Positions 28,801 to 49,551 of a stretch of 64,000 bases of DNA are shown here, one piece after another. The notes beneath the pieces were generated by a model. The model was given only the letters and a program-made list of their open reading frames with translations. It did no database searches and was not told the origin of the DNA. The stretch is from an uncultured Verrucomicrobiota bacterium (lineage in GTDB: Bacteria > Verrucomicrobiota > Verrucomicrobiia > Palsa-1439 > CAYGDP01), in the NCBI GenBank assembly GCA_964348665.1, contig CAYGDP010000002.1, positions 110,033 to 174,032 of the forward strand. Reading direction: 5' to 3'. Numbering within the stretch: the stretch's first letter is position 1; the number at the start of each line of letters is the position of its first letter. A program made the position numbers and the translations under genes.

Positions 28801-31800
28801 ACAACGGGCTTTGGACAGCCCAGGCCAACAACCAGATTTCTAACGACTACGGCAACGCTCAGTCCACTTTCTCCAACTTCGGCAGCTTCCAACACACCGG
28901 CACGTCCAGCAGCCACATCTTTATTGTCTATGACAACGATGGCAGCACGCAAGTCACCAGCGGCACTTTGCATTTGCGAGGCGGGGGCAACAGCAGCGGC
29001 AGCTTCAACGCCACCAGTCCTGGCGCGCTCTTCTTTGGCGAAGGTACTCATACTTTGAGTGCCACTTCCTCGGTCACCGGCAGTGGCACGCTTGGCATCT
29101 TCACCGGCAGCACGGTGGTCAACGGCTCCTGGACAGTCAGCGGCACCACCGATCTGCAGGGCGGCACCATCAGCTTCAATACGGCGGCTACAACGGTCAA
29201 CGCCTTGCTCCGTGGCAGTGATGTTGCGGGCAGCGGCAGCCTCACGGTAAGCGGGACGATGAGTTGGACCGCGGGCCGGATCGTAAACGGAGCGACCTTG
29301 ATTGGGACTCACGGAGCGACCTTGAATCTGATCGGCGGGAATGAAGACATCGTTGGTTCGACCTTGAATAACGATGGAACTGTCAACTGGACCAGCGGCC
29401 GCATCCGGACCGGTTTCGGAACGCACATCAACAACGACGGCCTTTGGATCGCCCAAGCCAACAACGCCATCGTCAACGACTACGGCGGCGCGCAATCCAC
29501 TTTCTCCAACAGCGGCATCTTCCGCCAACAGGGCAGCGGCACAACCACGATTGCGATTGATTTTATCAACTTTGGCTCGGTCGAGATTCTGACCGGCACG
29601 CTTAGTTTCACCGGCGCTTATACCCAGACTGGCGGCGTCACCGCGTTGGAGGGAGGCAGTCTGAGTTCCACTCAAACTCTCACCATTCAAGGCGGCGTCT
29701 TGACCGGCATCGGAACGATCTTTGCCAACGTCGTAAACGGCGGCGAACTTGGACCGGGCGCTTCAATTGGGATGGACGTCGGCATCCTCAATCTCGCCGG
29801 CAATTATACCCAGACGACCACCGGCTCGCTGCATATTCAGCTCTTCGATGTTGGCGCGGGGATCGGGTTCGATCAATTCCGGGTCGCCGGCGCGGTGACT
29901 CTGGAAGGGGGCATCAACCTCGCCCTCGAATCCACGATACCCCTATCGGGAGAAATCATCTTCCTCGACAACGACGCGACCGACGGTGTGACGGGAACCT
30001 TCGTGGGTTTGCCCCAAAACACCTTTGTGATGCTCAACGACGACCTGTATCAACTTAGCTACAGCGGGGGCAGCGGCAACGACGTGAGCCTCCAACGCGT
30101 CGTGGGTATTACCATCACCAACGTCAGTCTTCCCGAAGGCGATTTGGGGATAACCGATTTCATCTTCACGGTCAGTCTGGACCAACCCGGCACCACGTCG
30201 CTAACTCTCGACTACGCCACCAAGGATGGCACGGCCACCTCCGCGCATGATTACGTGGCGACCACCGGCTCGCTCACCTTCGCGCCGGGCGAAGTCACCA
30301 AGCCGATCACCGTCCCGGTCAACGGCGACAACGCCAGCGCGACCGACGAGACGTTCTTTGTGGAGATCGTCAATCGCATCCTGGTGTTCTCGCCCAACAC
30401 CACCCGAATCGGCATCGGAACGATCCTCAATGACGACAACGAACTTTACGACGCCGAAGAACGATTCCTCTTTACCACGACGGAGGATTTCCACGAAGGA
30501 ACGCTCTCCTCCAACCTCACTGCGACCCAGGTGCCCGATGAAATGGGACTGATGGCGCAATTCCCCTTCTTCCCTTACGTGAACATCGCCGCATCCGCCC
30601 GGGGCACGATCATCCGTCTGGATGCCAACACGGGTGAGATTCTCGGCGAATACCTCACCGCGCCCGATGGGATGGGACGCAATCCCTCCGCGACCGCGGT
30701 GGACCTCTTGGGCAACGTCTGGGTCGCCAATCGCGATGAATCCTCGGATGGCAAAGGATCGGTGACCCGAATCGCCCTTGTCATCGGCGGCACGCGCGGC
30801 ATCAAAAATCCCGACGGCAGTTTCACGCCCGATCCCGGCGGCCAATATCTTCAAGGACCCTTCCTCTATTCCACGGCCATTGACCGCGATGGCGACGGCC
30901 TGATTAAAACCTCCTTTGGTCTGGGCAACATACTTGCCTGGAACAACGCCGGCGGGACGGATTCGCTGGGCGGCGTTTTCACGGCGGAAGACGAACTCAT
31001 CATCAATTACACCCGCGTCAGCGGCACCAGGACGGGCACCGTCGCCATTGACGGCAACAACGATCTCTGGGTGGGCGGCGTGGGCGATCACGACCACGAA
31101 AAAATCAGCGGCGTCACCGGTCAGCCGATTCCCGGCACCCAGTTTAACACCGGTCGCGCCGGCTTCGGCGGTCTGGTGGATCGCAACGGCGTGCTCTGGT
31201 CATCGAACTCGCTGATCCGCTTCGTTCCCAACGTCAATCCGCCGCCGGCGGGCACCAGCGCCAGCATCGGCAACAATTACGGAATCGCGACCGACCCGCG
31301 CACGGGTCACATCTGGATCACCAACGGCGGGATTGGATGCAGCTACGGTCTCTTCGAGTTGGATTCGGATGGCCGCGTGCTGAACCGCTACCCGCAACCA
31401 TTCCCCTCCCAAGGAGTGGCGGTGGACGCCAACAGCCACGTCTGGGTGGCGCAGATGTTTGGCTCGAAGGTTTGGCATCTTGCACCCGACCCCAACGATC
31501 CGACCCGACACATCACGGTCGGGTTTGTCACCGGCTTTCACGAGGTCAACGCGCTGGCGGTGGACCCGAATGGCAAGATTTGGGTCGCCGAACGAGGCAA
31601 TCGCGCCAGCCGCATTGATCCCAGCGCGGGCGACATCGGCGCAGGCGGTTACCCGGTGGGCGCGATTGAATTGAGCGTTGCTCTGGGTCTGGGGGCGGGT
31701 CCTGACAACTACAGCGACATGACCGGCTTTGTCTCGCACAGCTTGGTCCCGCAAGGCGTCTGGACGCACACCATTGACGGCGAACAAGACCGAACGGGCT

Positions 31801-34800
31801 GGGGAGTTGTCGTTGTGGACGCGACCATCCCCGTGGGGACAAGCATGGTGGTGCAAGTGCGCGCCGCCGACAGCTTGAGTGATCTGGCGAGCCTGCCCTA
31901 CATCACGATCCAGTCCGGCCAAATCCTCCACGACGTCGCCGGTCGGTTCTTGCAACTCAAAGTCACCGTCGTCTCCGAGGACGACGCCACTCGTCCGAGC
32001 GTGCAAGCGATCTCCATTTATAAATTGCCGCCGCCGACCATCACGGTCTCCAGCCCCGCCAACGGCGAGCGATTCGACGCGGGCAGTTCGATTCTGATTA
32101 CCGGCCTAGCCGCTTCCGGCCGTCCCTTTATCGCCGAGACGGGAACGCAGATTCCCAATCGGATCGCCACGGTCACCGCCAATGGAACGACCGTCGAGGC
32201 GCTGGACTTGATTGGGAATTTCTTCACCCGAGTCACGCTTTTGCCCGGCGAGAATGTTTATGAGTTTACCGCGTATGACGCCTTCGGCCAGAGCGTCACC
32301 GCAACGCTGACTCTCACCGGCGTGCAAGTGACGGCCGGCGACGTTGATTTCGCGCAGTTGACCGATGTTAGCCGCAGCTTCGTCAGTGAATATGGCCGCA
32401 CCTCGTTTACCGAGAGCGCCGACGTGTTGTATGCCGACCTTGACTCGATTCGCAGCATCGGCTCGTTTTACGTGGATGCGCCTTTCCTGCTCGGGGTGAC
32501 CAACTTCAGCGATTCAAGCGTGCAACTGGCCGACAGCGACGGGGTGACTCCCGATGGTATCGCGTACTACGACCTGAGCAGTCTGGTCATTGACGGCTCG
32601 ATCGCGCCCGGAGAACTGCTCGGCTCGCAAACGCTGGCCTTCTTCAATCCCAACCGCGTTCGGTTCACCTACGATCTGGTCTTCTTGGGTCGCCTCAATC
32701 GCGCGCCCGCGTTTACCACCGTTCCCGATCTTTCGGTTGCCCTGGGCCAGACCTATTCCTACCTCGCCGACGCTGCGGATCCTGATGTGAACCCGCTGAG
32801 CTTCTCGATTCTCTCCGGCCCCGCCGCGATGACCATCGAGAGCGCGACCGGCGCGGTGACGTGGACGCCGATCACAAGCGACCTCGGAACCCATTCCATT
32901 ACCCTTCAAGTCGCCGATGGCCGGGGCGGGTTTGGCCGGCAACATTACTTGCTCTCGGTCACTGCCGTTCCGCCGAATCGTCCGCCGGTCTTCACCTCGA
33001 TTCCAACGGTTGTTGGCAACGTCAACCTCACCTATAATTATTTGGCCACCGCAACCGACACGGACAACGACGCGCTGATCTTCTCCCTGCTTAGCGGGCC
33101 GCAAGGCTTGAGCGTCCATGCCAACGGTCTTGTCACTTGGACGCCCACCGCCGACCAGCTCGGAGTTCAAAATGTGGTTCTCACTGTTTCCGATGGCCAC
33201 GGCGGCGACGCCTTCCAAAGCTTCGCCATTTTCGTCAGCCAGGAACCGGGCAATCACCCGCCCGTGATCGTCACCCAACCGATCACCACGGGGTTCGCGG
33301 GAACCGCTTACACCTACGACGTGGATGCCCTTGACGCGGACAACGATTCTTTGACCTATTCCCTGACGACCTTCCCAGCGGGGATGACCATTGACGGAAT
33401 GACGGGATTGATTTCATGGAATCCAACGTTGAGCGACGTGGGAAATCACGTCGTCACCGTCCGCGTGAGCGAGAATCGCGGCGGGATCGGCGAACAGAGT
33501 TTCTTCCTCTCGGTTCAAGGGCAAGCCCCCGCCCAAATCCGCGGCGCGAAATTCAACGATCTGGACGGGAACGGCGTCCGCGCTTCCGAAGAACCCGGTC
33601 TTGCCAATTGGGCGATCTATCTAGATCAAAACGGCAATGGCCGGCGCGACTTTGGCGAGTCGGTCAGGCTTACCGATGTCAACGGAAACTATTCCTTCGA
33701 TAATCTTCTGCCCGGCGATTATCTCGTCGCCGAGGAAGCTCAGCGCGGGTTTAGCCAGACGGCTCCCCTGGGCGGAACATACGCGGTCAGCGTCGCCAAC
33801 GGCCAGATCGTCGCGGGACTGGATTTCGGCAACAAGCAGGTGGCGGTTGTGGAAGAGCAGCCGCCCTTCTTCGTGACCGAGCCGATTACTGAAGCGATTG
33901 CAAGCCAGACCTATCTCTACGAAGCCGCCGCGACCGATCCCAATTTCGATGCGCTCAGCTTCGATCTCCTGGTCAAACCCGCCGGGATGCTGGTGGATCC
34001 CGTAACCGGCGTCGTGATCTGGGAACCCACCGCCGCCCAGGTCGGTGTGCACGACGTCGTGCTGCGAGTTTCGGACGGCAACGGCGGCAGCGACGAGCAA
34101 TCCTTCCAAATCATCGTCAGCCCCGCCAATAACCCGCCTTCCATCACTTCGGTTCCATTCGGTCCCGCCTTGGTCGGCCTGCTCTACCAATATCAAGTCC
34201 GCGCGCAAGACGCCGACGGCGACGCGCTGACGTTCCAATTGGTGACTGCGCCCTCCGGAATGACCCTCTCTTTCCTCACTCCTCAATCCTCAATCCTCTC
34301 CTGGACGCCAACCTTCAGTCAGATTGGGACTCACGCCGTCGCCATCACCGTCGCCGATGGTCGTGGCGGAATGGACGCGCAGAGCTTTGATCTCGCCGTG
34401 GCCGTTGCCAATGACGCTCCTGCCATCACCTCGACGCCGACTGCCCCCGCCGTTGTCGGGTTCCCGTATCAGTATCAAGCGCGAGCTTCCGATCCCAATG
34501 GCGATCCGCTCACCTTCCGCTTGGACGTCGCCCCCTCGGGCATGGTGATTGATCATTTGAGCGGCCTTTTGACGTGGACGGCGACCGCCGATCAGGTCGG
34601 TACCAATCAAGTCAGCATCGCCGTGACCGATGGCCGGGGCGGGATCGCCACCCAGTCGTTTGGATTGCCCACCGTCACTGAAGCGGTCAACGACGCCCCT
34701 CAAATCACTTCCTCGCCTCCCGCGCCCGCCGTTGTCGGCTTCCCTTATCGGTATCAGGTGGAAGCATCCGATCCCAATGGCGATCCGCTCACTTTCAGTC

Positions 34801-37800
34801 TCGATACCGCTCCCAGTGGGATGACGATGGATAGCCAGACAGGGCTTGTCTCGTACACCGCTACCGCCGGTCAGGTCGGCAATCAACCCGTCGCCATCAC
34901 GGTCGCCGACGGTCGCGGCGGATTCTTTACGCAGTCGTTTGATTTGCCCGTGGTGACCAGCGCCCCAAATGACGCGCCAACCATTGTCTCCGAGCCGCTC
35001 GGCCCCGCCGTCGTGGATGCGCCCTATCGTTACCAAGTGGAAGCCACAGACGTAAATGGCGACCTGATTACGTTCCAACTCACCACCGCTCCCAGCGGAA
35101 TGCTGATTGACTCCGCCACGGGACTGATCTCATGGACGCCGACCGCCGCCCAGGTGGGAACCCAGAATGTCGCCGTCTCGGCTAGCGACGGTCGGGGCGG
35201 CGTCGCCACGCAGTCGTTTGGGCTGCCCGTCGTGACGCAGACGATCGCCAATGAGCCGCCTTCCATCAGTTCCACGCCGCGCATCAATGCCGCTGTTGGT
35301 TCGCTCTATCTCTATGCGGTCGTGGCCACCGATCCCAATCATGACGTCCTGACTTATTCTCTGCCAATCGCCCCCGCAGGCATGACGGTGGATGCCGATG
35401 GTTTGATCCGTTGGACGCCGACGTCCGCTCAACTCGGACCGAACTTTGCGCGGCTGGAAATCTCTGATGGCCGAGGCGCTATTGTGGGACAAGAGTTTAA
35501 CGTCAACGTCACCACCGAGTTCACCAATCAGCCGCCGATTATCGTTTCCAACCCGACGGGTTCAGCTCTTGTGGGTGATCTCTATCGTTATGACGCTGTC
35601 GCCTCCGACCCCGATCATGACCCGCTCACATGGACGCTGGTCAGCGGCCCGGCGGGAATGTCCATGGATTCGCAGCTTGGCTCGCTGCGTTGGACGCCCA
35701 ACGCGGATCAAGCAGGATTCCAACCCGCTGTCATCCAAGTCAGCGATCCCTTCGGCGGTTCTTCAACCCAAAGCTTCACGGTGGCGGTTCGCTTGGTCAA
35801 TATCGCCCCCAGCATTACTTCCACGCCGCTGACCAGCGCCGTGGTCGGCAAGACGTATGTTTATGCCGTCCGCGCCACCGACCCTGAAAACGATCCGCTG
35901 GCCTTCTTCCTGACCAGCGCTCCGGCGGGAATGACCATGGACGCGGGGACGGGATTGATCCTGTGGACGCCGACCAGCGCGCAGGCGGGCAGCGCGAGCG
36001 TCTCGGTGGCGGTTTCCGACGGGCAAGCCTTCTCTTCCCAAAATTATTCCATCACCGTGCTGGCCACGGCGGAGAATGCCCCGCCGGTGGTGACCTCCAC
36101 CCCGCCGTTCTTTGCGACGGTGGATACGCTCTACACTTATATTGTCACCGCCGTTGACCCGGAATCCGAGCCGATCACGTTCACGCTGACCGAAGCTCCT
36201 GCGGGAATGACGCTCACCCCAGTCACCAATAACGAGTCACAAATCACTTGGACGCCGTCTGCGGCGGACATTGGTTTCCACACCGTCTCGATCGTGGTGA
36301 CCGACCCGCATGGCGCGCCGAGCGCGCAGCGCTTCACCATCGGTGTGGCTGATCCCAACAATCCCAATCCGCCGATTGCGGATATTTCCAACATCGCGGA
36401 GAACCAAGTGGTGCGGGATGGATTGTTTGATCTGGTTGGCATCGCCAATGATCTCGACCCGACCGACGCGGTCTCTTACCAGTTGAGCCTTTTCCTGCCC
36501 GATGGCACGTTTGTCCGAGACATGACGCCCGCTCCGCTCAACGCGCAAGGCTTCCATGTGGGTCGGGTTTCCGGCGGTGACAATCTTGCCACGCTGGACT
36601 TCACGATGTTGGAGAACGGCGTTTACCAACTCGATCTGACGGTGAGAGGCGGCAACGATTTCGACTCGGACACCGTCACCTTCGCGTTGGACAGCAATCT
36701 CAAGGTCGGCCAGTTCGGTTTCTCACAGCAAGATTTGGTGATTCCTGTCAGCGGCATCCCGCTCTCGGTGATTCGCACGTACAACTCGCTCAATCCGAGA
36801 GACGGAGATTTCGGGTTCTCGTGGACATACTCGATCAGCGACGTGGAGTTTACCACCGATGAGTTCCGCGTCCCTGCCGAGGACATTGATGGCACAAACT
36901 TTAGCCTGCGCGACGGTGGCGGGCGCAACATCACTCTCACGCTCCCCGATGGGCGGCGGACAACGTTCGCGTTCTCGCTGACGCCCGGTCTTTCGGACGC
37001 TTCGGGTGTGTCTTGTTTCTGTTACCAAGCTTTCTGGACGGCCCCGCCCGGCGTCTATTACACCCTCCAACCGACCGTCTCCAATAAGCTCATCCAACTC
37101 CCCGGCCTAACGCCGTTCTGGGAAGCGGCGGGCTTGGGCACGCCGATGGATGCGTTTGATTTCAAGAGCTTCATCCTGACGGGCAAAGACGGCGCGCGGG
37201 TTGATCGTTCCGGCCACCGCACCGACGGCTTCCCGCTGGGCCACACCGCCACCGGCGGCACGCGCTACGTCATCGAGCGGGAAGATTTGGGTGAACACTT
37301 TGTCCTCACCGAGGAAGGCGCGAGCCTCTTCGTCCACACTTATGGCGAGGGGAAACTCACACAAGTCATTGATCGAAATGGGAACACGACGGTTATTAGC
37401 AACGATCAAATCGCTTCCTTTAATGCCTTGGGTGACCCAATACGTTTGATTACATTCGACCGGAATCCTGAAGGTCGCATCGTAGCCATTACTGACCCAC
37501 TGGGCGCACAAATGACTTATGAATATGACTCTTTGGGCAACCTCACCTCCGCAACCGACCGAGTTGGCAATACCACCCAATATGTCTATGGAAATCCCAG
37601 TTTATCGCACTACATTACAGAGATAATAGATCCACTTGGCCGAACAACCGCTCGGACGGAATATGATGATAACGGACGCATCATCGCTACGATTGACGCG
37701 AAGGGCAATCGTGTGGAGTTCAACTACGACTTGTCGGGACACACGCAGACAATTTTCAACGGGCTTGGTATCCCGGCAATTTACACCTATGACACGCGTG

Positions 37801-40800
37801 GGAATGTAACGGAGAGAACACAGTTCCTCGATGGCATGGCGGTTGTCAATCATTGGATTTACGACGGCAACAATAACTTACTCACCCACGTTGACCCTCT
37901 GGGCAATACGCGCAACTACACATACGATTCACAAGGGAACGTGCTATCGGTGACTGATCCTCATGGCGCAGACCAGAATCCTGAGGAGTTCACAATACGT
38001 TACACCTATGACGAGTTCGGTAATAGCACCAGCGTCATGCTGCCGACTGGAGCAGCGGAATTTTCGACGTATGACTCCAATGGGAATCTGCTGGCAATCA
38101 CCAATGAGGACGCCGTGGTGTTGAGTTCATGGACGTTCGACGCGGTGGGAAACACGACCTCCGAGACCGATGCGTTCGGGACATTCTCCTACCAATATGA
38201 TTCGGTCGGCAACAATATCAGCTTCACTGATTCCATAGGCAATACGATCACCAGCACCTACGATGCGAACGGCCAGATCACGACGATGACGGATAACGGG
38301 GTGACCTCGACATTCCAATACGACGAAAATGGTCGGGAGACATCCTCGGATTACGGCAATGGTATCACGGCCAACTATGGTTACAGTTTCCAAGACGAAT
38401 GGACGACGCTGGATGCACCGACAATCGGACATCTTGGGCGCGAGTTTGACGAAACAGGGCGGTTAGGCGGCTGGGAGTTGACGAACGGCAGCACGATAGA
38501 TTTCGATTACAACGCGGCGGGGCAATTGACCCAACAGGTTGATCCAATGGGGAACGTGACGCAATATGAATATGATGATCTAGGTCGTGTGGTTAGCGTC
38601 GTAGACGTGGCGACGGGTGCCGTGACGACGAAGGAATATGATCTCGCAAACCGCGTGATTCGGACTACGGATGCAGAAGGAAACTCGCAAACTTTCAGCT
38701 ACGGACCGGATGGCCGGCTCGCAGCGACGAGTGATGCGAATGGAAATGTCTTATTATACAGCTACACATTATTCACCACGTCTGTGACCGATCCGTTGGG
38801 ACGGACGACGACAACGGAGTTCTCGGAGCTTGGTGTGCCGATCCGCACGATCAATCCCGATGGGACGGAATCGAGCGCGAGCTACTTGGATGGGGTGATT
38901 GATGACCCCGATGAGTTCCCCACGTCACTGGTGGATGAAGGCGGTCATGTGCGGTCGTACACGTATGACGACGTTGGCCGACTTTCGACGGCAACGGATT
39001 TAGGCGGGAGCGTTTACAATTATAATTACGGGTTAGATGGTCTTTCTTCTATCCTTGGTCCCACCAGCGAGACGCTTGGCTTCACGTACGATATTATTGG
39101 AAATCGCAGCACGATGACCTTTGGGGATGGGGGCGTGCAGAGCTATTCCTACGGGGCGAACAATTTACCTTCTGTGGTAACGCTGCCGTCGGGCGAAACG
39201 ATTAGCCTCCTCTACGATGACGCAGGTCGCACGACCTCGCGTATGACTTCCGAGGGAGAATCTGCAACATACTCCTACAACGCCAATGACCAAGTTACCG
39301 TGCAGCAGGATAACACGGGCATTACCAGTTACACGTATGACGAAATCGGAAATTTGCAGCGCATTGATTATCCGACCACTGCGAGCGTCGAATACGGATA
39401 TGATTTGCTGGGACGCGTGATCTCTGTGACGGCCAAGGAATCTCCGACTGCGTTAGGTTACACAACGCTTTATCACTATAACGAAATCGGGAATCTCGAC
39501 CAAGTGACCGACCCGTTGGGTGGGGTGACGACGTATGAATATGATGAGGTTTATCGGCTAGGCAAACGAACATTGCCCAACGGAATCGAGACGACCTACG
39601 AATACAATGACAGCGATCAAGTGACAGTCATCATCCACAAGGATAGCGGCAGCAATGTGATTGCATCGCTGCGCTACGAGCGTCAGGGAATCGGTGAGCC
39701 AAGCAAGATCACGCGCGAAGACGACTCGTATGTGTTGCTCGGTTACGATAACGCGCTACGCATGACCAGCGAAGCCTATTTTGATCCCAACAACGTGCTT
39801 ATCGAGCAAATCACTTATCAATATGACGACGCGGGAAATCGGGTCGGCAGAACGACGGCGTTGGGAGCGAGCACATACAACTACCAGACGGGCTTCCGTC
39901 TCACAGCGGTGGACGGGCCAGGCAGCGATGATGAATCCTACAGCTATGATTCGGATGGAAACACAACCGCGATCAGCCGCGACGGATTGAATCTGATGCT
40001 AACTTATGACAGCTACGGACACGTGACAGGTGTGCAAGGGCTGGCGGGCGGCGCGACAGAAACGTATACCTATGACGCTATGGGTCGGCGCGTGGGAATA
40101 GCAAACGGAGCGGGTGACATTAGGAACTTCCTCGTCGCGCCGACATTGGCAGATGGACTTGAACAACCGTATCTGGTGACCGACGTCAGCGGCGCGGTTC
40201 AGATGGGCTACGCGTACGTAGGCGAGACGCCGTTGCTGCGCTTCGATGCCAGCGGCCAGCCAGTTTATTACCTTGACGACGCGATGGGATCAGTGATCGG
40301 ATTGGCGAACGCCAGCGGTCAAGGTGTTGCAAGCTTCCAATACGACGGCTTCGGAAATCCGCGAGTGGTAACCGGCGACTCTGCTGCACCCGCGACCATC
40401 GGTGGCGACTTCCGTTTTCACGGACAATGGCTTGACATCTCCACTCAGCTATATTCCATGCGTGCTCGCACTTACGACCCACAGACCGGTCGATTCCTCA
40501 GTCGCGACCCCATCGAAATGGACCAGTTCACACCCGAGATGATGAATTTCTACATCTTCGCAAACTCAAATACGCACCTCTTTCGCGATCCGAGTGGGTT
40601 GTTTTCACTAATCGAATTAAATTTGACGACACTAATCCAAGGTTTTCTACAAGGTATACGCGCGCTAGCTGTACATGAAGCTAAGCAGTATGTTAAGCAA
40701 CAGGCGTTTGGAGCGGCTGGTAGTTTTTTTGTTAACTCGATCGCTTCGTTCGTGCCAGGGCTCCATGAATTTGGAAGTAACCTGTCTTCGATAACTGGCA

Positions 40801-41399
40801 CGGACTTTGAAGGGATAATCAAGAATACGATCTGTGGTTTAGCCGAGCCGATTTCTTCTATTATTCCAATCGGGGTTAGATTCCAAGTGAAGGTCCTTGC
40901 ACAAAATACGCCTTCTCCCGAGGGGATTCTTCGTGCAGGAACACCGGTTTCACCAGGAATAGGTTGTAGCGGTTCCTCTGAAGCTTATAGGAATGCTTCA
41001 AATCCATTTCTTAGGCTCTCGTTTACGGGAGGGAAAAAGCAAAGGTTCAACTCCGCCGATTTTGTATTTCGGAATGGCGATGTCGTTAGATACTCTACGA
41101 GAAACCATCCCGTACCCCAGAGGCCTAAAGGCTGGGCAATAGGTGATTCAAAACGAACCGCGGTGACTGCCTATCTGTCAGCGAAAACGAATTCAACGCA
41201 GTGGCGCGCTATCACGGCCTACGCTAGTTTATATGGTAGCCAACAATACATACCTTTCGCTTTTTACGTGACTTTGTTACGAAACAGCCAGAATGCAACC
41301 TTTGGAAGGCCACAGGCAATTATAATGCAGAGTAGTGCTCTGCGTAGTGGGACGGTAGTTTCAGTTTTTAGCTTATTCCCCGTGCCAAGTATTTATTGA
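22866..41399 (+). CDS. giant 6177-aa multidomain adhesin-like RHS/YD-repeat polymorphic toxin
   Basis: Single uninterrupted ORF of 18,534 nt. Domain order: P/S/T-rich N-terminus; PKD-like domains; beta-propeller-like region; 6 x 212-aa tandem repeats; Calx-beta ('DYATKDGTATSAHDYVATTGSLTFAPGE'); second propeller-like region; 12 cadherin-like/putative-Ig repeats; one SdrD-B-like domain; YD repeats ('YEYDSLGNLTSATDRVGNTTQYVY...'); RHS core 'YSMRARTYDPQTGRFLSRDP...RDPSGL'; about 265-aa C-terminal module. Confidence 0.9.
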   Translation: METGQNNRDQAVAIALKAFEENALREAVAVSTPPAEAGITLRSMFRGTTTFRALARKIATLLPRVAPRRESKLLRKLRHFQRQKACLSPAENHLQHPSSTTSVPPRANPSERRGMPSRFTAPIPLTSRLKHLVLGKWGTKDKSPRRKREHRFRRDLRYDQSFVAESAEPRLMAGSLAGPNILTVIDGVEGNEDWTMGLPEIVALGNSQAVPQTSEAPHAASSSTNHTEPIASNVTLPANAETTAQAIQSLQETGEFNPEEDIGLPFLSSDSTSSAWNPLNPDVTEALLFQLAELQQLFASRNALDTVAPKTLIAPLALEPTSAQTDSQIDPSLLAGDSQTSNSEPTTTGSGSTPQTISPVTNPQSSPTGDSPGNRDPPPDPPPPGLIRMACSGWTLVESGGSESGRGSFTSESGSLALREGDSFLVSIQRAFTIPPNPATLTFTLDELTFDTTDPDFINDAFEAAFLDASGISLVPVIASSRDSFFNATEGEPVALGSKTTFSDPTVTLNISSLPAGSTGILALRLVNNDSDVNTLARIHCNTPPQVTANDGAANEGQSLEFVGTFIDPDIGDTHTALISWGDNTTSEGVVTATQDGGTVTASHVYADNGNYTITLTVSDNNEGVGSDSATATIANVAPAVTVGPNQTHKDKELALDFTIGTFSDPGFTSPTAGTEETFTALIDWGDGTTPSEGTLTVVQGSEGVLTTGTVTANHVYQGGGVYTVTLTVTDDDLDSGSASFQITILPTKFFVVDQDRRSTFRYDRDGGFVSESDLGQFDSRPRGVASDSTGDTLWVIDANKTVYVYTGEGALLGSWQDPGLNQPQDITTDGTDIWIIDTPDNVVYRYSGAASRRSGSQAPDASFPLVVEDRNPTGLVTDGSTFWVTDNFDHLNKVFVYDMTGQLLGSWLLDPLNVDPSGITLNPNGGSDLWVVDRLRNAVFHYAESQDVRSGSLLVTDTFALANNNRHPEGIADPEVFWNVDSDGFWDDAANWDTGTVPSPTDDVIIDRPTANPTVTIRFGAQSVNSVTSHEALVLSGGTLSVAAPSEVNNTFTLSGGDLTGAGPFTINNTMDWIAGRLVSGGTLVIANTATLNLINSNDKDVVGSTLNNFGTANWNTGRIRTGSGSLIANSGLWIAQANNQISNDYGNAQSTFSNSGSFQHIGSSSSHIFIVYDNNGSTDATNGTLHLRAGGTSSGSFNAASPGALFFGEGTHILNASSSVSGSGTVGIFSGSTIVNGTWSVSGITDLQGGTIAFNTAASTATGIFRGSDLAGSDSLTVTDTMDWSSGRIVSGGTLIIANTATLNLINSNDKDVVGSTLNNFGAVNWFVGRIRTGSGSLISNSGLWIAQANNQISNDYGNAQSTFSNSGSFQHSGSGDSHIFIVYDNNGSTDVTSGTLHLRGGGNSSGSFNAPTPGRLLFGEGTHTLSASSSISGSGTLGIFSGSAVVNGSWTVSGITDLQGGTISFNTAASTVTGIFRGSDLAGSGSLTVSNAMDWSSGRVVSGGTLIIANTATLNLINSNDKDVVGSTLNNFGTVNWNAGRIRTGSDSLIANSGLWIAQANNQISNDYGNAQSTFSNSGSFQHSGSGDSHIFIVFDNNGSTDVTSGTLHLRGGGNSSGSFNAPTPGRLLFGEGTHTFSASSSVSGSGTLGIFSGSAIVNGSWMVSGITDLQGGTIAFNTAASTITGIFRGSDLTGTGSLTVSNTMDWSSGRIVSGGTLTIANTATLSLINNNDKDIVGSTLANFGTVNWLAGRIRTGSGALISNSGLWIAQANNQISNDYGNAQSTFSNSGGFQHSGSGDSHIFIVYDNNGSTDVPSGTLHLRGGGNSSGSFSTTSPSALFFGEGTHTLTATSSVSGSGTVGIFSGSAIVNGSWVVSGTTDLQGGTIAFNTAASTVTGIFRGSDLTGSDSLTVTDTMDWQRGRVVSGGTLVIANTATLNLINSNDKDIVGSTLSNFGTVNWNAGRIRTGSGALIANNGLWTAQANNQISNDYGNAQSTFSNFGSFQHTGTSSSHIFIVYDNDGSTQVTSGTLHLRGGGNSSGSFNATSPGALFFGEGTHTLSATSSVTGSGTLGIFTGSTVVNGSWTVSGTTDLQGGTISFNTAATTVNALLRGSDVAGSGSLTVSGTMSWTAGRIVNGATLIGTHGATLNLIGGNEDIVGSTLNNDGTVNWTSGRIRTGFGTHINNDGLWIAQANNAIVNDYGGAQSTFSNSGIFRQQGSGTTTIAIDFINFGSVEILTGTLSFTGAYTQTGGVTALEGGSLSSTQTLTIQGGVLTGIGTIFANVVNGGELGPGASIGMDVGILNLAGNYTQTTTGSLHIQLFDVGAGIGFDQFRVAGAVTLEGGINLALESTIPLSGEIIFLDNDATDGVTGTFVGLPQNTFVMLNDDLYQLSYSGGSGNDVSLQRVVGITITNVSLPEGDLGITDFIFTVSLDQPGTTSLTLDYATKDGTATSAHDYVATTGSLTFAPGEVTKPITVPVNGDNASATDETFFVEIVNRILVFSPNTTRIGIGTILNDDNELYDAEERFLFTTTEDFHEGTLSSNLTATQVPDEMGLMAQFPFFPYVNIAASARGTIIRLDANTGEILGEYLTAPDGMGRNPSATAVDLLGNVWVANRDESSDGKGSVTRIALVIGGTRGIKNPDGSFTPDPGGQYLQGPFLYSTAIDRDGDGLIKTSFGLGNILAWNNAGGTDSLGGVFTAEDELIINYTRVSGTRTGTVAIDGNNDLWVGGVGDHDHEKISGVTGQPIPGTQFNTGRAGFGGLVDRNGVLWSSNSLIRFVPNVNPPPAGTSASIGNNYGIATDPRTGHIWITNGGIGCSYGLFELDSDGRVLNRYPQPFPSQGVAVDANSHVWVAQMFGSKVWHLAPDPNDPTRHITVGFVTGFHEVNALAVDPNGKIWVAERGNRASRIDPSAGDIGAGGYPVGAIELSVALGLGAGPDNYSDMTGFVSHSLVPQGVWTHTIDGEQDRTGWGVVVVDATIPVGTSMVVQVRAADSLSDLASLPYITIQSGQILHDVAGRFLQLKVTVVSEDDATRPSVQAISIYKLPPPTITVSSPANGERFDAGSSILITGLAASGRPFIAETGTQIPNRIATVTANGTTVEALDLIGNFFTRVTLLPGENVYEFTAYDAFGQSVTATLTLTGVQVTAGDVDFAQLTDVSRSFVSEYGRTSFTESADVLYADLDSIRSIGSFYVDAPFLLGVTNFSDSSVQLADSDGVTPDGIAYYDLSSLVIDGSIAPGELLGSQTLAFFNPNRVRFTYDLVFLGRLNRAPAFTTVPDLSVALGQTYSYLADAADPDVNPLSFSILSGPAAMTIESATGAVTWTPITSDLGTHSITLQVADGRGGFGRQHYLLSVTAVPPNRPPVFTSIPTVVGNVNLTYNYLATATDTDNDALIFSLLSGPQGLSVHANGLVTWTPTADQLGVQNVVLTVSDGHGGDAFQSFAIFVSQEPGNHPPVIVTQPITTGFAGTAYTYDVDALDADNDSLTYSLTTFPAGMTIDGMTGLISWNPTLSDVGNHVVTVRVSENRGGIGEQSFFLSVQGQAPAQIRGAKFNDLDGNGVRASEEPGLANWAIYLDQNGNGRRDFGESVRLTDVNGNYSFDNLLPGDYLVAEEAQRGFSQTAPLGGTYAVSVANGQIVAGLDFGNKQVAVVEEQPPFFVTEPITEAIASQTYLYEAAATDPNFDALSFDLLVKPAGMLVDPVTGVVIWEPTAAQVGVHDVVLRVSDGNGGSDEQSFQIIVSPANNPPSITSVPFGPALVGLLYQYQVRAQDADGDALTFQLVTAPSGMTLSFLTPQSSILSWTPTFSQIGTHAVAITVADGRGGMDAQSFDLAVAVANDAPAITSTPTAPAVVGFPYQYQARASDPNGDPLTFRLDVAPSGMVIDHLSGLLTWTATADQVGTNQVSIAVTDGRGGIATQSFGLPTVTEAVNDAPQITSSPPAPAVVGFPYRYQVEASDPNGDPLTFSLDTAPSGMTMDSQTGLVSYTATAGQVGNQPVAITVADGRGGFFTQSFDLPVVTSAPNDAPTIVSEPLGPAVVDAPYRYQVEATDVNGDLITFQLTTAPSGMLIDSATGLISWTPTAAQVGTQNVAVSASDGRGGVATQSFGLPVVTQTIANEPPSISSTPRINAAVGSLYLYAVVATDPNHDVLTYSLPIAPAGMTVDADGLIRWTPTSAQLGPNFARLEISDGRGAIVGQEFNVNVTTEFTNQPPIIVSNPTGSALVGDLYRYDAVASDPDHDPLTWTLVSGPAGMSMDSQLGSLRWTPNADQAGFQPAVIQVSDPFGGSSTQSFTVAVRLVNIAPSITSTPLTSAVVGKTYVYAVRATDPENDPLAFFLTSAPAGMTMDAGTGLILWTPTSAQAGSASVSVAVSDGQAFSSQNYSITVLATAENAPPVVTSTPPFFATVDTLYTYIVTAVDPESEPITFTLTEAPAGMTLTPVTNNESQITWTPSAADIGFHTVSIVVTDPHGAPSAQRFTIGVADPNNPNPPIADISNIAENQVVRDGLFDLVGIANDLDPTDAVSYQLSLFLPDGTFVRDMTPAPLNAQGFHVGRVSGGDNLATLDFTMLENGVYQLDLTVRGGNDFDSDTVTFALDSNLKVGQFGFSQQDLVIPVSGIPLSVIRTYNSLNPRDGDFGFSWTYSISDVEFTTDEFRVPAEDIDGTNFSLRDGGGRNITLTLPDGRRTTFAFSLTPGLSDASGVSCFCYQAFWTAPPGVYYTLQPTVSNKLIQLPGLTPFWEAAGLGTPMDAFDFKSFILTGKDGARVDRSGHRTDGFPLGHTATGGTRYVIEREDLGEHFVLTEEGASLFVHTYGEGKLTQVIDRNGNTTVISNDQIASFNALGDPIRLITFDRNPEGRIVAITDPLGAQMTYEYDSLGNLTSATDRVGNTTQYVYGNPSLSHYITEIIDPLGRTTARTEYDDNGRIIATIDAKGNRVEFNYDLSGHTQTIFNGLGIPAIYTYDTRGNVTERTQFLDGMAVVNHWIYDGNNNLLTHVDPLGNTRNYTYDSQGNVLSVTDPHGADQNPEEFTIRYTYDEFGNSTSVMLPTGAAEFSTYDSNGNLLAITNEDAVVLSSWTFDAVGNTTSETDAFGTFSYQYDSVGNNISFTDSIGNTITSTYDANGQITTMTDNGVTSTFQYDENGRETSSDYGNGITANYGYSFQDEWTTLDAPTIGHLGREFDETGRLGGWELTNGSTIDFDYNAAGQLTQQVDPMGNVTQYEYDDLGRVVSVVDVATGAVTTKEYDLANRVIRTTDAEGNSQTFSYGPDGRLAATSDANGNVLLYSYTLFTTSVTDPLGRTTTTEFSELGVPIRTINPDGTESSASYLDGVIDDPDEFPTSLVDEGGHVRSYTYDDVGRLSTATDLGGSVYNYNYGLDGLSSILGPTSETLGFTYDIIGNRSTMTFGDGGVQSYSYGANNLPSVVTLPSGETISLLYDDAGRTTSRMTSEGESATYSYNANDQVTVQQDNTGITSYTYDEIGNLQRIDYPTTASVEYGYDLLGRVISVTAKESPTALGYTTLYHYNEIGNLDQVTDPLGGVTTYEYDEVYRLGKRTLPNGIETTYEYNDSDQVTVIIHKDSGSNVIASLRYERQGIGEPSKITREDDSYVLLGYDNALRMTSEAYFDPNNVLIEQITYQYDDAGNRVGRTTALGASTYNYQTGFRLTAVDGPGSDDESYSYDSDGNTTAISRDGLNLMLTYDSYGHVTGVQGLAGGATETYTYDAMGRRVGIANGAGDIRNFLVAPTLADGLEQPYLVTDVSGAVQMGYAYVGETPLLRFDASGQPVYYLDDAMGSVIGLANASGQGVASFQYDGFGNPRVVTGDSAAPATIGGDFRFHGQWLDISTQLYSMRARTYDPQTGRFLSRDPIEMDQFTPEMMNFYIFANSNTHLFRDPSGLFSLIELNLTTLIQGFLQGIRALAVHEAKQYVKQQAFGAAGSFFVNSIASFVPGLHEFGSNLSSITGTDFEGIIKNTICGLAEPISSIIPIGVRFQVKVLAQNTPSPEGILRAGTPVSPGIGCSGSSEAYRNASNPFLRLSFTGGKKQRFNSADFVFRNGDVVRYSTRNHPVPQRPKGWAIGDSKRTAVTAYLSAKTNSTQWRAITAYASLYGSQQYIPFAFYVTLLRNSQNATFGRPQAIIMQSSALRSGTVVSVFSLFPVPSIY
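26079..29894 (+). repeat. six near-identical 636-nt (212-aa) tandem coding repeats inside the giant gene
   Basis: The motif 'atggactggagcag[c/t]ggtcg[g/a]atcgtcagcgg' recurs at 26715, 27351, 27987 and 28623, always 636 nt apart. Diverged copies sit at 26079 and 29259. Confidence 0.85.
32700..36355 (+). repeat. 12 cadherin-like/putative-Ig domain repeats (about 92 aa each), interrupted by one SdrD-B-like domain at about 33530-33840
   Basis: Recurrent '..PP.ITS.P...A.VG..Y.Y...A.DPD.D.L.F.L...P.GM.ID..TGL.SWTPT..Q.G...V...V.DGRGG...Q.F' units starting near 32700, 32985, 33255, 33860, 34130, 34420, 34690, 34965, 35250, 35530, 35800 and 36075. Confidence 0.7.
36596..36679 (+). repeat. 84-nt segment duplicated at 43110-43193 (one mismatch)
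   Basis: 'gacttcacgatg[t/c]tggagaacggcgtttaccaactcgatctgacggtgagaggcggcaacgatttcgactcggacaccgtcac' occurs in both places. Flanks are about 80% identical (36360-36440 vs 42906-42990). Confidence 0.85.
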
Positions 41400-42776: not shown

Positions 42777-42830
42777 TTGTTGTTGTGGCTCAGGAGATTG
42801 TGGTGCGGTGGCAGTTTTTGAGATAACGCG

Positions 42831-43202
42831 ATGCAAACGAGATTGAATACGACGCCGTTGTTGTTGTGGCTTCTCTTGCAAAAGCAAGAGCAGCGGGAAG
42901 TTGCGCCGATTGCGGATATTTCCAATATCGCGGAAAACCAAATCGTCCGTGATGGACTCTTCGATCTCATCGGTGTCGCTGACGACGCTGACCCAGCGGA
43001 CATAGTTTCCTGGGAAGTCACTGTTCAATCGGTGGCACAGGCGTCCCTGCCTGTGGTTCTATTGACAGGTTCAAATCGGGTTTCAGGGGGAGATTCCTTT
43101 GGCATCCTCGACTTCACGATGCTGGAGAACGGCGTTTACCAACTCGATCTGACGGTGAGAGGCGGCAACGATTTCGACTCGGACACCGTCACTTTCTGTT
43201 AA
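42831..43202 (+). pseudogene. orphan fragment homologous to an internal segment of the giant toxin gene (pre-YD-repeat region), with its own N-terminal hydrophobic leader
   Basis: 123 aa, 'MQTRLNTTPLLLWLLLQKQEQREVAPIADISNIAENQIVRDGLFDL...FTMLENGVYQLDLTVRGGNDFDSDTVTFC'. Matches giant-gene aa about 4500-4610. Stops 3 codons after nucleotide identity ends. Confidence 0.6.
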
Positions 43203-43403
43203 AGGCCGAATTGACGTCGTACGCGATGACCGAATTCTGATCATACGATTTTTCCGAGTTGACCGCGCTCTCATCATATTTTGCGCCCGATTTCGTCATA
43301 GCGGCATCGCGAGTTATGACCGTGCTGGTCTTTCGCCCACTCACGCGATTTCGGCTGCGCTCTCATCATAGCGATAGGACGGTAGCGGCTCTTTTCTGTT
43401 ATC

Positions 43404-43712
43404 TCACCGTTTCCCGGTGAGTTCTTTCATGGCTTGGTCGAACGACAGTCCGAGCACTTTCATGTAGAAATCAATGGCGTTGCCCGCCTGATTTTGCTCC
43501 GGCCAGCGCCAATACGACGATTTGAGGATCAAGCCCTTGTACTGTTGGACCTCGTAGTTGCCGCCGGTCAACCGATCAATGCCCTGATTGGGCGTTGAGT
43601 TCGACAAACCTAACAGCCATAACGTCTTTTCGATCAAGTCCGTCTCTTCATCCCGATACCTTGAGACTACACTCGCTCCCCTCATAGAGAAAATTTCTAG
43701 CACAGCTACCAT
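43404..43712 (-). CDS. hypothetical protein
   Basis: 102-aa ORF, last in a three-gene minus-strand arrangement with overlapping boundaries. Hairpin CTCACCG/CGGTGAG sits at its 3' end. Confidence 0.3.
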   Translation of the reverse strand: MVAVLEIFSMRGASVVSRYRDEETDLIEKTLWLLGLSNSTPNQGIDRLTGGNYEVQQYKGLILKSSYWRWPEQNQAGNAIDFYMKVLGLSFDQAMKELTGKR

Positions 43713-49547: not shown

Positions 49548-49551
49548 ATCC
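49521..49551. repeat. 30-nt imperfect direct repeat (copy 1), partner at 50551-50580
   Basis: 'ggattggatgacagctcaaagcgataaatcc' versus 'cattggatgacagcccaaggcgataaatcc' (27/30 identical). They bracket the pRiA4b ORF-3 gene. Confidence 0.7.

Follow-up and report, generated by a model that had tools for sequence, protein, structure and literature searches.

The short ORF that lies behind a giant RHS toxin gene and its two ankyrin-repeat genes in the window (the whole 64-kb stretch of DNA analyzed here) is probably a non-functional, truncated 5′ remnant of a second Ig-plug-RHS toxin gene, the tail of which appears to have been recently converted by the giant gene. This interpretation is drawn from sequence. 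The ORF, hereafter the orphan, is a mosaic homolog of the giant gene, in which an old divergence under selection is joined to a recently exchanged tract; it ends abruptly, and the remainder of a toxin gene is missing behind it. The first-pass annotation had proposed a second, shorter RHS gene that recombined with the giant gene and was then truncated. The diverged homolog, the past selection, the recent exchange, and the abrupt end in unrelated DNA all agree with that proposal, but upstream (22.9 kb) and downstream (about 30 kb) no second plug or RHS sequence was found, and no scar of the truncation was identified.

The 123-aa ORF reported 3′ of the immunity genes was confirmed at 42831..43202 (+) with an ATG start (Table 1); the immunity function of the two ankyrin genes is presumed. 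The orphan starts 54 nt past the end of ank2 and consists of a non-homologous N-terminus of 24–25 aa followed by one complete Ig-like domain. In the giant protein, the corresponding domain sits between the last Big_9/He_PIG repeat (Big_9 at about aa 4404–4492) and DUF6531 (aa 4611–4685). The DPSGL motif and the two ankyrin genes are present with the giant gene, whose toxin tip (40602..41399) gave no match in Pfam or NCBIfam. The surroundings of the locus are recombination-prone and mobile: a tRNA-Pro and an integrase gene lie shortly before the giant gene, another integrase gene is found at 47808–48950, and a defence/mobile island lies downstream. The next ORFs 3′ of the orphan are convergent, on the minus strand (43404–43712, 43706–43900, and 43897–45165). 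The largest of these (422 aa) belongs to a family of >1,000 members, whose genes occur in unrelated contexts together with a small ORF downstream; this two-gene module is widespread and unannotated and gives no element boundary. On the two sides of the homologous stretch, 42777..42903 resembled neither the giant gene nor anything else retrieved, and RHS homology was absent from 43197..43403 in every frame. Each of these flanks contains a 14-nt exact direct repeat, namely TTGTTGTTGTGGCT at 42777 and 42858, the second copy of which encodes the LLLWL hydrophobic stretch, and GCGCTCTCATCATA at 43265 and 43357.

Table 1 Features of the giant gene, the ankyrin genes, and the orphan (positions are those of the window)
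Feature	Position	Strand	Remarks
Giant gene	22866..41399		
Ig-like pre-plug domain of giant protein	36372..36683	+	aa 4503-4606; paralog of the orphan; unnamed
Exchange tract, giant copy	36597..36683	+	aa 4578-4606, last strands of Ig-like domain
DUF6531 plug, RHS/YD shell, and DPSGL (aa 5908, nt 40587)	36696..40601	+	RHS_repeat 1.3e-98, TEN_YD-shell, DUF6531
C-terminal toxin tip of giant gene	40602..41399	+	GC3 about 0.41
Ankyrin-repeat genes ank1 and ank2	41554-42138, 42135-42776	+	overlapping; 36% identical paralogs; GC3 0.42-0.46
ank2 stop to start of homology	42777..42903	+	includes ATG 42831 and 'leader' codons
Orphan ORF	42831..43202	+	123 aa; ATG start; ends ...DTVTF-C-stop
Orphan 5′ homologous part	42904..42979	+	= giant 36370-36445; 82% nt identity
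Orphan divergent middle	42980..43075	+	= giant about 36446-36562
Exchange tract, orphan copy	43110..43196	+	87 nt; 2 synonymous mismatches
DNA abutting truncation point	43197..43403	.	unrelated; reaches stop of convergent 102-aa ORF

A blastn search of 42701–43500 against the window returned only two significant matches, both in the giant gene (22866..41399): 43076–43196 against 36563–36683 (88%, E = 4e-40) and 42904–42967 against 36370–36433 (86%, E = 1e-15). When the giant protein was compared with the rest of the window using tblastn, the orphan alone matched, at about aa 4503–4606 (63% aa identity, E = 2e-30), which is where a match ahead of the YD repeats had been noted (residues about 4500–4610). 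The mosaic identity described earlier, about 80%, then a divergent middle, then a near-identical end, was recovered by alignment of the 293-nt homologous stretch. In the 5′ part (42904–42979), 62/76 nt are identical (82%), and the longest exact run is 22 nt. The middle, about 120 nt, can essentially not be aligned as nucleotide sequence; it falls in that region of the domain family which varies most and is rich in indels (alignment A1, columns 56–90); the offset between the copies goes here from 6534 to 6513, a net in-frame deletion of 7 codons. The 3′ block (43110–43192 = 36597–36679) then has one mismatch (36609) in 83 nt and includes an exact 70-nt run (43123–43192). The next mismatch is found at 36680/43193, and all homology stops at 36683/43196. 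Three details of the first-pass annotation had to be amended: the near-identical block exists, but it starts at 36597 rather than 36596 in the giant gene, and the 84 nt given for it hold, in orphan coordinates, two mismatches instead of one; and the ORF closes not three codons past the end of identity but after one codon (TGT), followed by TAA (stop at 43200).

Of the 35 codons of the orphan 5′ part, 15 are identical, 13 differ only synonymously, and 7 are replaced (V/I, V/I, I/V, N/D, L/A, T/A, and A/I), nearly all differences in this part being synonymous or conservative. As 13/28 amino-acid-identical codons differ synonymously, which is near saturation, and the replacements are conservative, the copies must have split long ago under protein-level selection in this frame. 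At the 82% background, the probability of ≤1 mismatch in 83 nt is 9e-7, and synonymous differences affect 18/35 amino-acid-identical codons outside the block versus 2/29 inside (Fisher p = 1.2e-4). A saturated 5′ part joined to 29 last codons that are almost untouched thus points to an old, once-selected homolog that was later given a recent conversion tract. The codons of the tract vary freely across the family, and codon choice in 16 family loci shows no synonymous constraint, so the identity between the orphan and the giant gene in the tract is genome-specific and recent. The absence of synonymous constraint in these 16 loci also led us to reject a conserved DNA or RNA element in the block. 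That the orphan records recombination between toxin loci, as had been suggested, is borne out by this recent tract shared with the giant gene.

The donor of the tract is probably the giant gene, judging from codon composition. GC3 is 0.79 in the tract, 0.68–0.76 in the giant gene around it, and 0.52 in the orphan-specific part (Fisher p = 0.014, a comparison of 69 and 29 codons only); the tract is therefore like the giant gene and unlike the orphan-specific part, which indicates the giant gene as the donor. A compositional junction at the block itself (36,597–36,683) was considered and rejected, as GC3 in the giant gene changes only some 650 nt past the block, at about nt 37,300.

In silent-cassette antigenic variation of the pilE/pilS type, silent copies vary an expressed gene. 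The first-pass annotation had offered a silent cassette for gene conversion as an alternative. In such a role, the orphan would act as a promoter-less donor, and gene conversion would vary the loops of the pre-plug Ig domain in the giant protein. The orphan does resemble such a cassette in having conserved flanks around a hypervariable middle beside an expressed full-length gene, its variable part covers the most variable, indel-rich columns of the family, and at least one conversion event took place between the two copies. Nonetheless, the idea gained no positive support and is very improbable. Unlike pilS, the orphan is single, with no array and no second orphan-like copy in the 64-kb window plus 10 kb, and only its 3′ flank is homogenized: the converted tract lies in a flank rather than in the variable middle, and the probable direction, from the giant gene to the orphan, is the wrong one. 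Moreover, the 5′ flank, synonymously saturated and with its longest exact run at 22 nt, is a poor substrate, neither a recombinase nor a guide sequence lies next to the orphan (4.6 kb, with unrelated genes, separates it from the closest integrase), and DNA-level conservation across the family is absent. We also rejected a diversity-generating retroelement, in which mismatches would be confined to template adenines, without indels: here, each of the four bases is affected, in either direction, and a net indel of 21 nt is present; no reverse transcriptase was found among the neighboring genes scanned.

The Ig-like domain, for which there is no Pfam model, belongs to PVC-type polymorphic toxins with the order Ig-like domain, DUF6531 plug, RHS shell, and toxin, a family delimited in this analysis. 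The domain is ~105 aa long, with the consensus PPxAxIxN...[IV]RDGLFxLxGTADDPD...VSY...LDFT..NGVY.L.L.V, and the orphan retains all 6 invariant columns of alignment A1. A phmmer search of 1.84 billion representatives gave 35 matches, the best non-self match being 49% identical (2e-16). In these 35 database relatives and in about 20 loci, found in Victivallales, Phycisphaerae, Kiritimatiellae, and Verrucomicrobia (PVC bacteria), the Ig-like domain always runs on in the same frame into the plug, RHS shell, and toxin, a downstream part of 1,450–1,790 aa, while the N-terminal extension ahead of it ranges from 38 aa to >3,700 aa. The plug motif ALxSxLK[VI]GQFxFSQQD..., which directly follows the Ig domain in the family, is absent after the orphan. 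By its architecture, the orphan is thus a fragment of a family member and not itself a member: the Ig domain is kept, and the plug and shell, the DPxGL toxin, and the immunity gene are missing. Short forms do exist. P0007 (GCA_049297395.1) has upstream stop codons, an ATG, and a strong signal peptide, followed by the Ig domain, plug, and RHS repeats; P0014 has 1,799 aa. Like the orphan, these forms have a short N-terminus and then the same Ig-like domain starting at a conserved P-[IV]-A-x-I motif; unlike them, the orphan has a far less hydrophobic N-terminus and stops at the end of the Ig domain. Their occurrence elsewhere makes a shorter second RHS gene a realistic source of the orphan. The L004/L005 paralog pair, with canonical 3′ shell fragments at 15958–16848 and 17078–18295, respectively, was rejected as an analog of short versus long forms, since the two are homologous also 2.7 kb ahead of the Ig domain; the short frame of L005 is therefore probably a disrupted long gene.

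An AlphaFold2 model of orphan aa 23–122, the confidence of which is driven by the family alignment (pLDDT 95.5), shows a seven-strand beta sandwich with the last strand included. A PDB fold search with the Ig-like domain retrieved only generic Ig/FN3-like sandwiches (best E = 0.025) and no specific link, such as to teneurin pre-plug domains. It should be noted that for a random truncation the break falls, as a mild coincidence, within 1–2 residues of the C-terminal boundary of the domain; the intact frame through the divergent middle and the confident fold model are further mild coincidences for a dead fragment.

The rest of the putative second gene was not found. A six-frame search of the rest of the window and the next 10 kb with a plug, shell, and toxin HMM returned nothing at E < 0.1 (positive control, 1525 bits). 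At the 43196/43197 junction, no IS end, IS-like inverted repeat, att repeat, or microhomology was found; no convincing terminator or promoter is seen near 43197, and no copy of the tRNA-Pro 3′ end (a possible attR) occurs in the window. Outside the window, 5.8 billion proteins searched through a word index yielded nothing but the orphan itself, and degenerate-pattern scans of metagenome_contigs and genome_contigs with the orphan gave no match. The public collections searched yielded no intact 'MQTRLN...-Ig-plug-RHS' gene; very long proteins may be under-represented in them, as the giant protein was returned by neither protein library. Full-length genes with the orphan leader fused to YD repeats thus did not appear, the best non-self match being the one at 49% identity.

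The N-terminus that had been described as a new hydrophobic leader, MQTRLNTTPLLLWLLLQKQEQREVA, is present, but it is weakly hydrophobic. Its hydropathy peak is 1.4, versus 2.6–2.7 in the signal peptides of the short forms P0007 and P0019, and its hydrophobic core, PLLLWLLL, has 8 residues where a Sec-type signal peptide has about 10–15. Such peptides also carry small residues at −1/−3 and no Pro after the site, while the sole Ala-ended candidate cleavage site read in the orphan, EVA\|P, has Glu at −3 and Pro at +1. On these features of its sequence, the N-terminus appears to be a poor signal peptide. This weakens another reading, in which the orphan is a selected, stand-alone exported Ig-domain protein, for example an accessory or a decoy of the RHS toxin. 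The frame is unbroken across a very divergent middle, the ends of the homology match the domain boundaries on both sides, the fold model is confident (pLDDT 95.5, seven strands), and the orphan is called as a gene in an operon position behind the immunity genes. Even so, we find a functional small gene quite improbable: besides the leader, which appears weak and without a usable signal-peptidase site, the AlphaFold2 confidence comes from the family alignment, the selection signal predates the truncation and is not assignable to the fragment, and among about 15 billion proteins there is no homolog of the same architecture with good assembly support. Apart from the orphan, a profile search for relatives retrieved just two short ORFs, each on a contig that is scrambled or frameshifted. 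The breakpoint of the orphan is matched to within about 10 codons by three further Ig-only ORFs, all of them doubtful: L002 lies on a scrambled Logan contig with an internal inversion, L027 on a 667-nt contig at 4x coverage, and L029 on a probably chimeric scaffold that joins the Ig-only fragment to a truncated der/EngA gene. Therefore, we do not claim a recurrent breakpoint at the Ig/plug junction.

The orphan sequence itself comes from a metagenome assembly, on a MEGAHIT-type contig (k141_690336), and the other public Ig-only fragments lie on dubious contigs; a strain variant of the giant Ig segment could thus have been mis-joined by the assembler. This is highly unlikely, however, as the exact orphan protein is called on 3 contigs of different length (ENA and NCBI) with mostly the same neighboring proteins, and the flanks (42777–42903 and 43197 onward) are unique and continuous with ank2 and the downstream genes. 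In addition, a mis-join at the 70-nt block would enter giant-gene sequence and not unrelated DNA, and the final k-mer, 141, exceeds the length of the exact repeat.

The two copies of the tract (36597–36683 and 43110–43196) form an 87-nt direct repeat, 6,513 nt apart, that brackets the plug, RHS shell, toxin, and both ankyrin genes. This geometry would exactly fit a single crossover between a large adhesin carrying an Ig stretch and a short leader-Ig-plug-RHS-toxin operon with two immunity genes, through Campbell-type integration of a 6.5-kb circle or unequal exchange. The 87-nt blocks would then be the duplicated crossover region, and the orphan would combine the N-terminus of the donor with the old 3′ end of the recipient. 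That the orphan begins 54 nt past ank2 and that both copies lose homology at the same base fit as well; the leader, Ig_B, and the present plug-to-toxin part would together make about 1,690 aa, a typical short-form size (P0014, 1,799 aa), and a constant Ig-plug-RHS module behind extensions of 38 to >3,700 aa implies that such swaps must occur. We consider this origin rather unlikely. A crossover alone does not make the copies identical, so heteroduplex repair would still be required; the recipient adhesin would have to end right after its Ig domain, as no clearly genuine relative does, so that a truncation is needed here too; and the GC3 change point lies at about nt 37,300, with the plug and the first 200 aa of the shell at 0.76, as in the adhesin part and not as in the orphan (0.52). 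It is also unlikely that the Ig-like domain serves as a joint for module exchange, where different N-terminal parts, for delivery or adhesion, become attached to a plug-RHS-toxin module that stays constant. If true, the orphan would be the reciprocal product of a crossover by which a short secreted RHS toxin became joined to an adhesin of 4,600 aa, the window would show a giant toxin gene at its birth, the 87-nt repeats would still let the 6.5-kb unit loop out and re-enter as a circle, and the process would be the N-terminal counterpart of C-terminal displacement.

We favor the truncated and converted remnant of a gene from the toxin family to which the C-terminal third of the giant gene also belongs; it may have arisen as follows. 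Its source was probably a short form with the Ig-like domain right behind the N-terminus. This second gene, or an imported piece of it, would have sat just 3′ of the giant gene's two ankyrin immunity genes, and everything past the Ig-like domain would have been lost at 43196/43197, either deleted or replaced by unrelated, island-type DNA. After long independent divergence, homologous recombination would have copied about 87 nt from 36597–36683 to 43110–43196, in a gene-conversion tract that presumably extended as far as homology was available. At present, the fragment most likely has no activity as a protein, and its transcription is probably passive, at the tail end of the toxin-immunity operon. 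Its sole mechanistic effect would be to provide an 87-nt direct repeat (70 nt exact) beyond the plug-RHS-toxin-immunity module, and recombination between the two copies could delete this 6.5-kb module.

Orphan rhs-CT/rhsI and cdiA-CT/cdiI modules are known to sit 3′ of full-length rhs genes, as in the C-terminal displacement model, and a canonical orphan rhs-CT/rhsI is a 3′ rhs fragment with the CT toxin region, followed by its small cognate immunity ORF (Poole et al. 2011, PMC3150448). The ORF described here is, like these (PMC3150448), a fragment just 3′ of the toxin-immunity pair of a full-length RHS gene, which retains homology that permits recombination with the main gene and records rearrangement of a polymorphic-toxin locus. 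It differs in representing the opposite end of the gene, the N-terminus and the pre-shell Ig-like domain, with no RHS repeats, DPxGL motif, toxin tip, or following immunity gene. Lacking both a toxin tip and an immunity gene, it cannot supply a new toxin by recombination. Paralogous rhs genes in one genome undergo concerted evolution by gene conversion, the classical behavior of a 'rearrangement hot spot', and the region that is homogenized is the long RHS core. Our locus shares with them a short near-identical tract between otherwise diverged paralogs, in direct orientation and a few kb apart. Here, with no core left in the orphan, homogenization is limited to the last 87 nt of a pre-core domain.

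The orphan is found in one metagenome-assembled genome, as a lone fragment that is probably dead. It is otherwise ordinary, and its value is as a record of recombination rather than as a new system. The 70-nt exact direct repeat flanks the whole toxin-immunity unit and would provide a testable route to its loss. RHS and other polymorphic-toxin loci diversify through swaps of the C-terminal toxin tip, which leave 3′ orphans behind. The orphan would be a 5′ leftover, and it suggests that the front ends of these genes, which in PVC bacteria range from a bare signal peptide up to a 4,600-residue adhesin, may also be exchanged or lost by recombination at the conserved pre-shell domain.

Searched against the whole window, the region 42701-43500 gave significant matches only within the giant adhesin-RHS gene (22866..41399; 6,177 aa). 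Reciprocally, the orphan was the only match of the giant protein in the rest of the window (aa 4503-4607, 63% identity, E = 2e-30). Base-by-base comparison of the two genes revealed three zones. The 5' zone (76 nt) is 82% identical, its longest uninterrupted match being 22 nt. The middle zone (~100-120 nt) is unalignable as DNA and includes a net in-frame loss of 7 codons in the orphan, the offset between the two copies passing from 6534 to 6513 across it. In the 3' zone, 43110-43192 and 36597-36679 differ at a single base and share 70 consecutive identical nt; position 43193 is a second mismatch, and all homology ends at 43196, after which the orphan continues with TGT TAA. The mosaic with a near-identical block described in the first-pass annotation was borne out, and the description was otherwise accurate, except that the start of the block in the giant gene (36597) had been placed one base off and that one extra codon (TGT), not three, precedes the stop.

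Features of the orphan, the giant gene and their surroundings (nt unless marked aa)
Feature	Position	Strand	Detail
Orphan ORF	42831..43202	+	123 aa
Match to giant gene	42904-42967 vs 36370-36433		86%
Match to giant gene	43076-43196 vs 36563-36683		88%
Exact 14-nt direct repeat TTGTTGTTGTGGCT	42777-42790 / 42858-42871		81 nt apart
Exact 14-nt direct repeat GCGCTCTCATCATA	43265-43278 / 43357-43370		92 nt apart
Giant protein, before the plug	aa ~4404-4492		last Big_9/He_PIG-type repeat, then Ig-like segment
Giant protein, DUF6531 plug	aa 4611-4685
Giant protein, after DUF6531			14 RHS repeats, teneurin-type YD-shell match, DPSGL motif (aa 5908), 265-aa toxin tip
tRNA-Pro (CGG)	20370-20445		immediately upstream of giant gene
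Tyrosine integrase	20523-21743		phage-integrase family, 406 aa, 78 nt past tRNA-Pro
102-aa ORF	43404-43712	-	C-terminal part (…AGNAIDFYMKVLGLSFDQAMKEL) weakly resembles CHC2 zinc-finger region of DnaG-type primases (Pfam E = 0.06)
422-aa protein and 50-75-aa ORF	43706-45165	-	no family annotation
Island genes			tyrosine integrase, PRiA4_ORF3, HerA-like ATPase, ATP-dependent ligase with WGR domain, ArdC, SSB, RadC
Island defence protein			dCTP-deaminase type (PADLOC dCTPase, E = 4e-149)
Island genes, further on			PD-(D/E)XK nuclease, nucleoside deoxyribosyltransferase, SIR2, GIY-YIG, QueC, Vsr
Island genes, also			histidine-kinase-type ATPase with response regulator, DNA methylase

The zones seem to record different histories. 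Of the 35 codons in the 5' zone, 15 are shared unchanged, 13 have synonymous differences only and 7 carry conservative replacements (V/I, I/V, N/D, L/A, T/A, A/I); about half of the codons able to differ silently do so. Because silent differences are common and replacements few, the orphan and the giant-gene segment split long ago and for most of the time since then stayed protein-coding in the present frame; the orphan is not a recent copy of that segment. The last 29 codons of the orphan domain, however, contain only 2 synonymous differences. Silent differences among codons with identical amino acids amount to 18/35 outside the tract versus 2/29 inside it (Fisher p = 1.2e-4), and at the identity of the 5' zone, 83 nt with no more than one mismatch would be expected with a probability of 9e-7. 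Across 16 family loci the tract codons vary freely and several residues are not conserved, which ruled out constraint on a DNA or RNA element; since the same codons vary freely, the identity reflects a recent exchange inside this genome. The GC3 of the tract (0.79) resembles that of the giant gene on either side (0.68-0.76), not that of the orphan-specific part of the domain (0.52; Fisher p = 0.014), and the giant gene is therefore weakly favoured as the putative donor.

No model for the shared segment was found in Pfam, NCBIfam, PHROGs or PADLOC. An exhaustive HMMER search of 1.84 billion representatives returned 35 relatives of the domain, and ~20 further loci were fetched via degenerate-pattern scans of Victivallales, Phycisphaerae, Kiritimatiellae and Verrucomicrobia genomes and of metagenomes. 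In every complete family gene, the domain directly continues into the plug motif (ALxSxLK[VI]GQFxFSQQD...), followed by 1,450-1,790 more residues, while the part ahead of it ranges from 38 to >3,700 residues. A clean short form, P0007 (GCA_049297395.1), has upstream stop codons, an ATG, a strong signal peptide, the domain, the plug and RHS repeats. The toxin tip of the giant protein matches no Pfam or NCBIfam family. Of note, aa ~1030-2180 of this protein (~25900-29400) contain about six near-identical tandem repeats of ~200 aa (…GRIRTGSGSLI[AS]NSGLWIAQANNQISNDYGNAQSTFSNSGSFQH…), another substrate for recombination within the gene and for misassembly.

Residues 23-122 of the orphan, modelled by AlphaFold2 with the family alignment, form a seven-strand beta sandwich (pLDDT 95.5) that Foldseek matched only to generic Ig/FN3-like folds (best E = 0.025). 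The orphan encodes exactly one complete domain copy behind 24-25 unrelated residues. This N-terminus (MQTRLNTTPLLLWLLLQKQEQREVA) contains a single Arg, a hydrophobic stretch of 8 residues and an extended polar tail. Its Kyte-Doolittle hydropathy, averaged over 11 residues, peaks at 1.4, whereas the signal peptides of two short forms, P0007 and P0019, reach 2.6-2.7. At its sole Ala-ended site, EVA/P, position -3 is Glu and position +1 is Pro. The 14-mer encoding the hydrophobic stretch has its other copy right behind the ank2 stop, and the reading frame is open from just 9 nt ahead of the ATG. The N-terminus is at most a candidate export signal, present or past, and may be non-coding sequence open by chance. 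The intact frame, domain-exact boundaries and confident model would suit a functional small Ig protein, which we nevertheless consider improbable given the poor leader and the lack of a well-supported homologue with that architecture. The two 14-nt repeat pairs flank the homologous part of the orphan, and four TCATCATA-like motifs occur within 43238-43370.

A plug-shell-toxin profile derived from 16 members of the family scored 1525 bits on the giant gene, used as control. It detected no second plug, shell or toxin in six-frame translations of the other 43.5 kb of the window or of the next 10 kb, and no tRNA 3' end copy, IS-type inverted repeat or other scar was found at 43196/43197. Three contigs of differing length (ENA, NCBI) encode an identical copy of the orphan protein, with mostly the same neighbouring proteins, and an assembly artefact is very unlikely. 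No close relative of the orphan was found in protein collections, JGI metagenomes or GTDB species representatives; absences from the two protein libraries need care, as neither returned the giant protein with the orphan query (63% identity, 105 aa), though it is recorded as a called gene, and very long proteins appear under-represented there.

No other good-quality locus among those examined carried an Ig-only fragment. Three other Ig-only ORFs (P0032/L002, P0019/L027 and P0006/L029) end at most ~10 codons from the Ig/plug junction. Locus L002 (Logan SRR23143462_13838, 3800-7700) holds a giant-gene relative split by an apparent simple inversion of ~2.9 kb; inverting 4141-7015 restores the gene. 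One breakpoint lies between '...IALNSE' and 'LKIGHFGFSQQD', at the Ig/plug junction, the other within a PKD domain, and no inverted repeats were found at the ends; the inversion may be genuine or an assembly error. L027 is a 667-nt contig at 4x coverage, and L029 joins its Ig fragment to a truncated essential GTPase gene. All three loci being doubtful, we do not claim a breakpoint hotspot at this junction. Assemblers may break there in genomes with several RHS paralogues, because repeat identity among these begins at that point. Canonical 3' RHS fragments do occur in a Victivallales genome, where they lie behind members of the family.

The orphan starts 54 nt past ank1/ank2, two overlapping ankyrin-repeat paralogues (presumed immunity genes) that are 36% identical to each other. 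GC3 is 0.70 in the adhesin part, 0.61 in the RHS shell and 0.41-0.46 in the toxin tip and ankyrin genes, falling from ~0.62 to ~0.41 near DPSGL (nt 40587) and staying at 0.42-0.46 in the ankyrin genes (40500-42776). A toxin tip and immunity genes of low GC3 usually mark a swapped toxin/immunity cassette, and by composition the tip and ankyrin genes here bear the signature of a recent swap. The 3' half of the giant gene has its best single GC3 change point at ~37280-37350, in the early shell (aa ~4805-4825), ~650 nt downstream of the block and not at it; this may mark an older junction formed by recombination in the shell. If the giant gene had arisen by one crossover joining an adhesin gene to a short leader-Ig-plug-RHS operon, with the orphan as reciprocal product, the same geometry would be expected, and the window would show the origin of the giant fusion. 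We regard this as unlikely: the plug and early shell share the composition of the adhesin, not of the orphan; a crossover alone does not render two copies identical; and it requires a recipient ending right behind the Ig domain, as no clearly genuine relative does.

The giant gene may lie inside a tRNA-linked genomic island, but no copy of the tRNA 3' end (attR direct repeat) was found anywhere in the window. Downstream of the orphan are three convergent ORFs without annotation. The 422-aa protein has >1,000 homologues (40-60% identity) in Verrucomicrobia, Planctomycetes, Proteobacteria and Nitrospinae, many on short contigs; genes of this type are always followed by the small ORF, in unrelated neighbourhoods (loci L024, L025 and L026), and the pair is a widespread, uncharacterised two-gene module. 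The 102-aa ORF may be another truncated mobile-element gene beside the orphan. Further downstream are a hydrolase-like gene and a DUF7309/DUF6930 gene, then a second tyrosine integrase (47808-48950), which belongs to a large mobile/defence island spanning 47808-64000 and positions 1-10000 of L030, past the window end. GC content is ~0.50 from 43 kb on, versus 0.56-0.63 in the adhesin part.

The simplest account is a second-gene remnant with later conversion. A second gene of the Ig-plug-RHS family, or an imported piece, would have stood behind the immunity genes, deeply diverged from the RHS module of the giant gene. Everything past the Ig-like domain would then have been removed, or replaced by unrelated island DNA, and in a later homologous exchange a copy of the final 87 nt of the giant-gene domain would have replaced those of the remnant, the tract running out at the end of homology. 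The orphan is probably carried along on the operon transcript without a function of its own. The initial observation is confirmed, while its reading as the truncated start of a second, shorter toxin gene is partly supported. A silent cassette for gene conversion, also proposed, is very improbable: the flank-variable-flank layout is suggestive, but there is a single copy, its 5' flank is a poor substrate, and the converted tract lies in a flank, with the direction seemingly from giant gene to orphan.

Concerted evolution of rhs paralogues is one of the nearest known cases. The other is provided by the orphan rhs-CT/rhsI modules of enterobacterial RHS loci (PMC3150448), which likewise lie behind an immunity gene and share a homology patch. 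Unlike these modules, the orphan holds the opposite gene end and lacks RHS repeat, DPxGL, toxin and immunity gene alike, so that it does not have the traits that define a canonical orphan module and has no toxin to donate. The most fitting description is that of a 5' relic within a polymorphic-toxin locus, a variant form of known recombination debris. Direct repeats of 87 nt (70 nt exact), spaced 6,513 nt, lie on either side of the plug-RHS-toxin-ank1-ank2 unit, and RecA-type recombination between them would delete the unit, leaving an adhesin ending in ...DTVTFC and a stop. The significance of the finding is modest; it would be higher if the Ig domain were a regular exchange joint for N-terminal modules, or if the 6.5-kb unit loops out.
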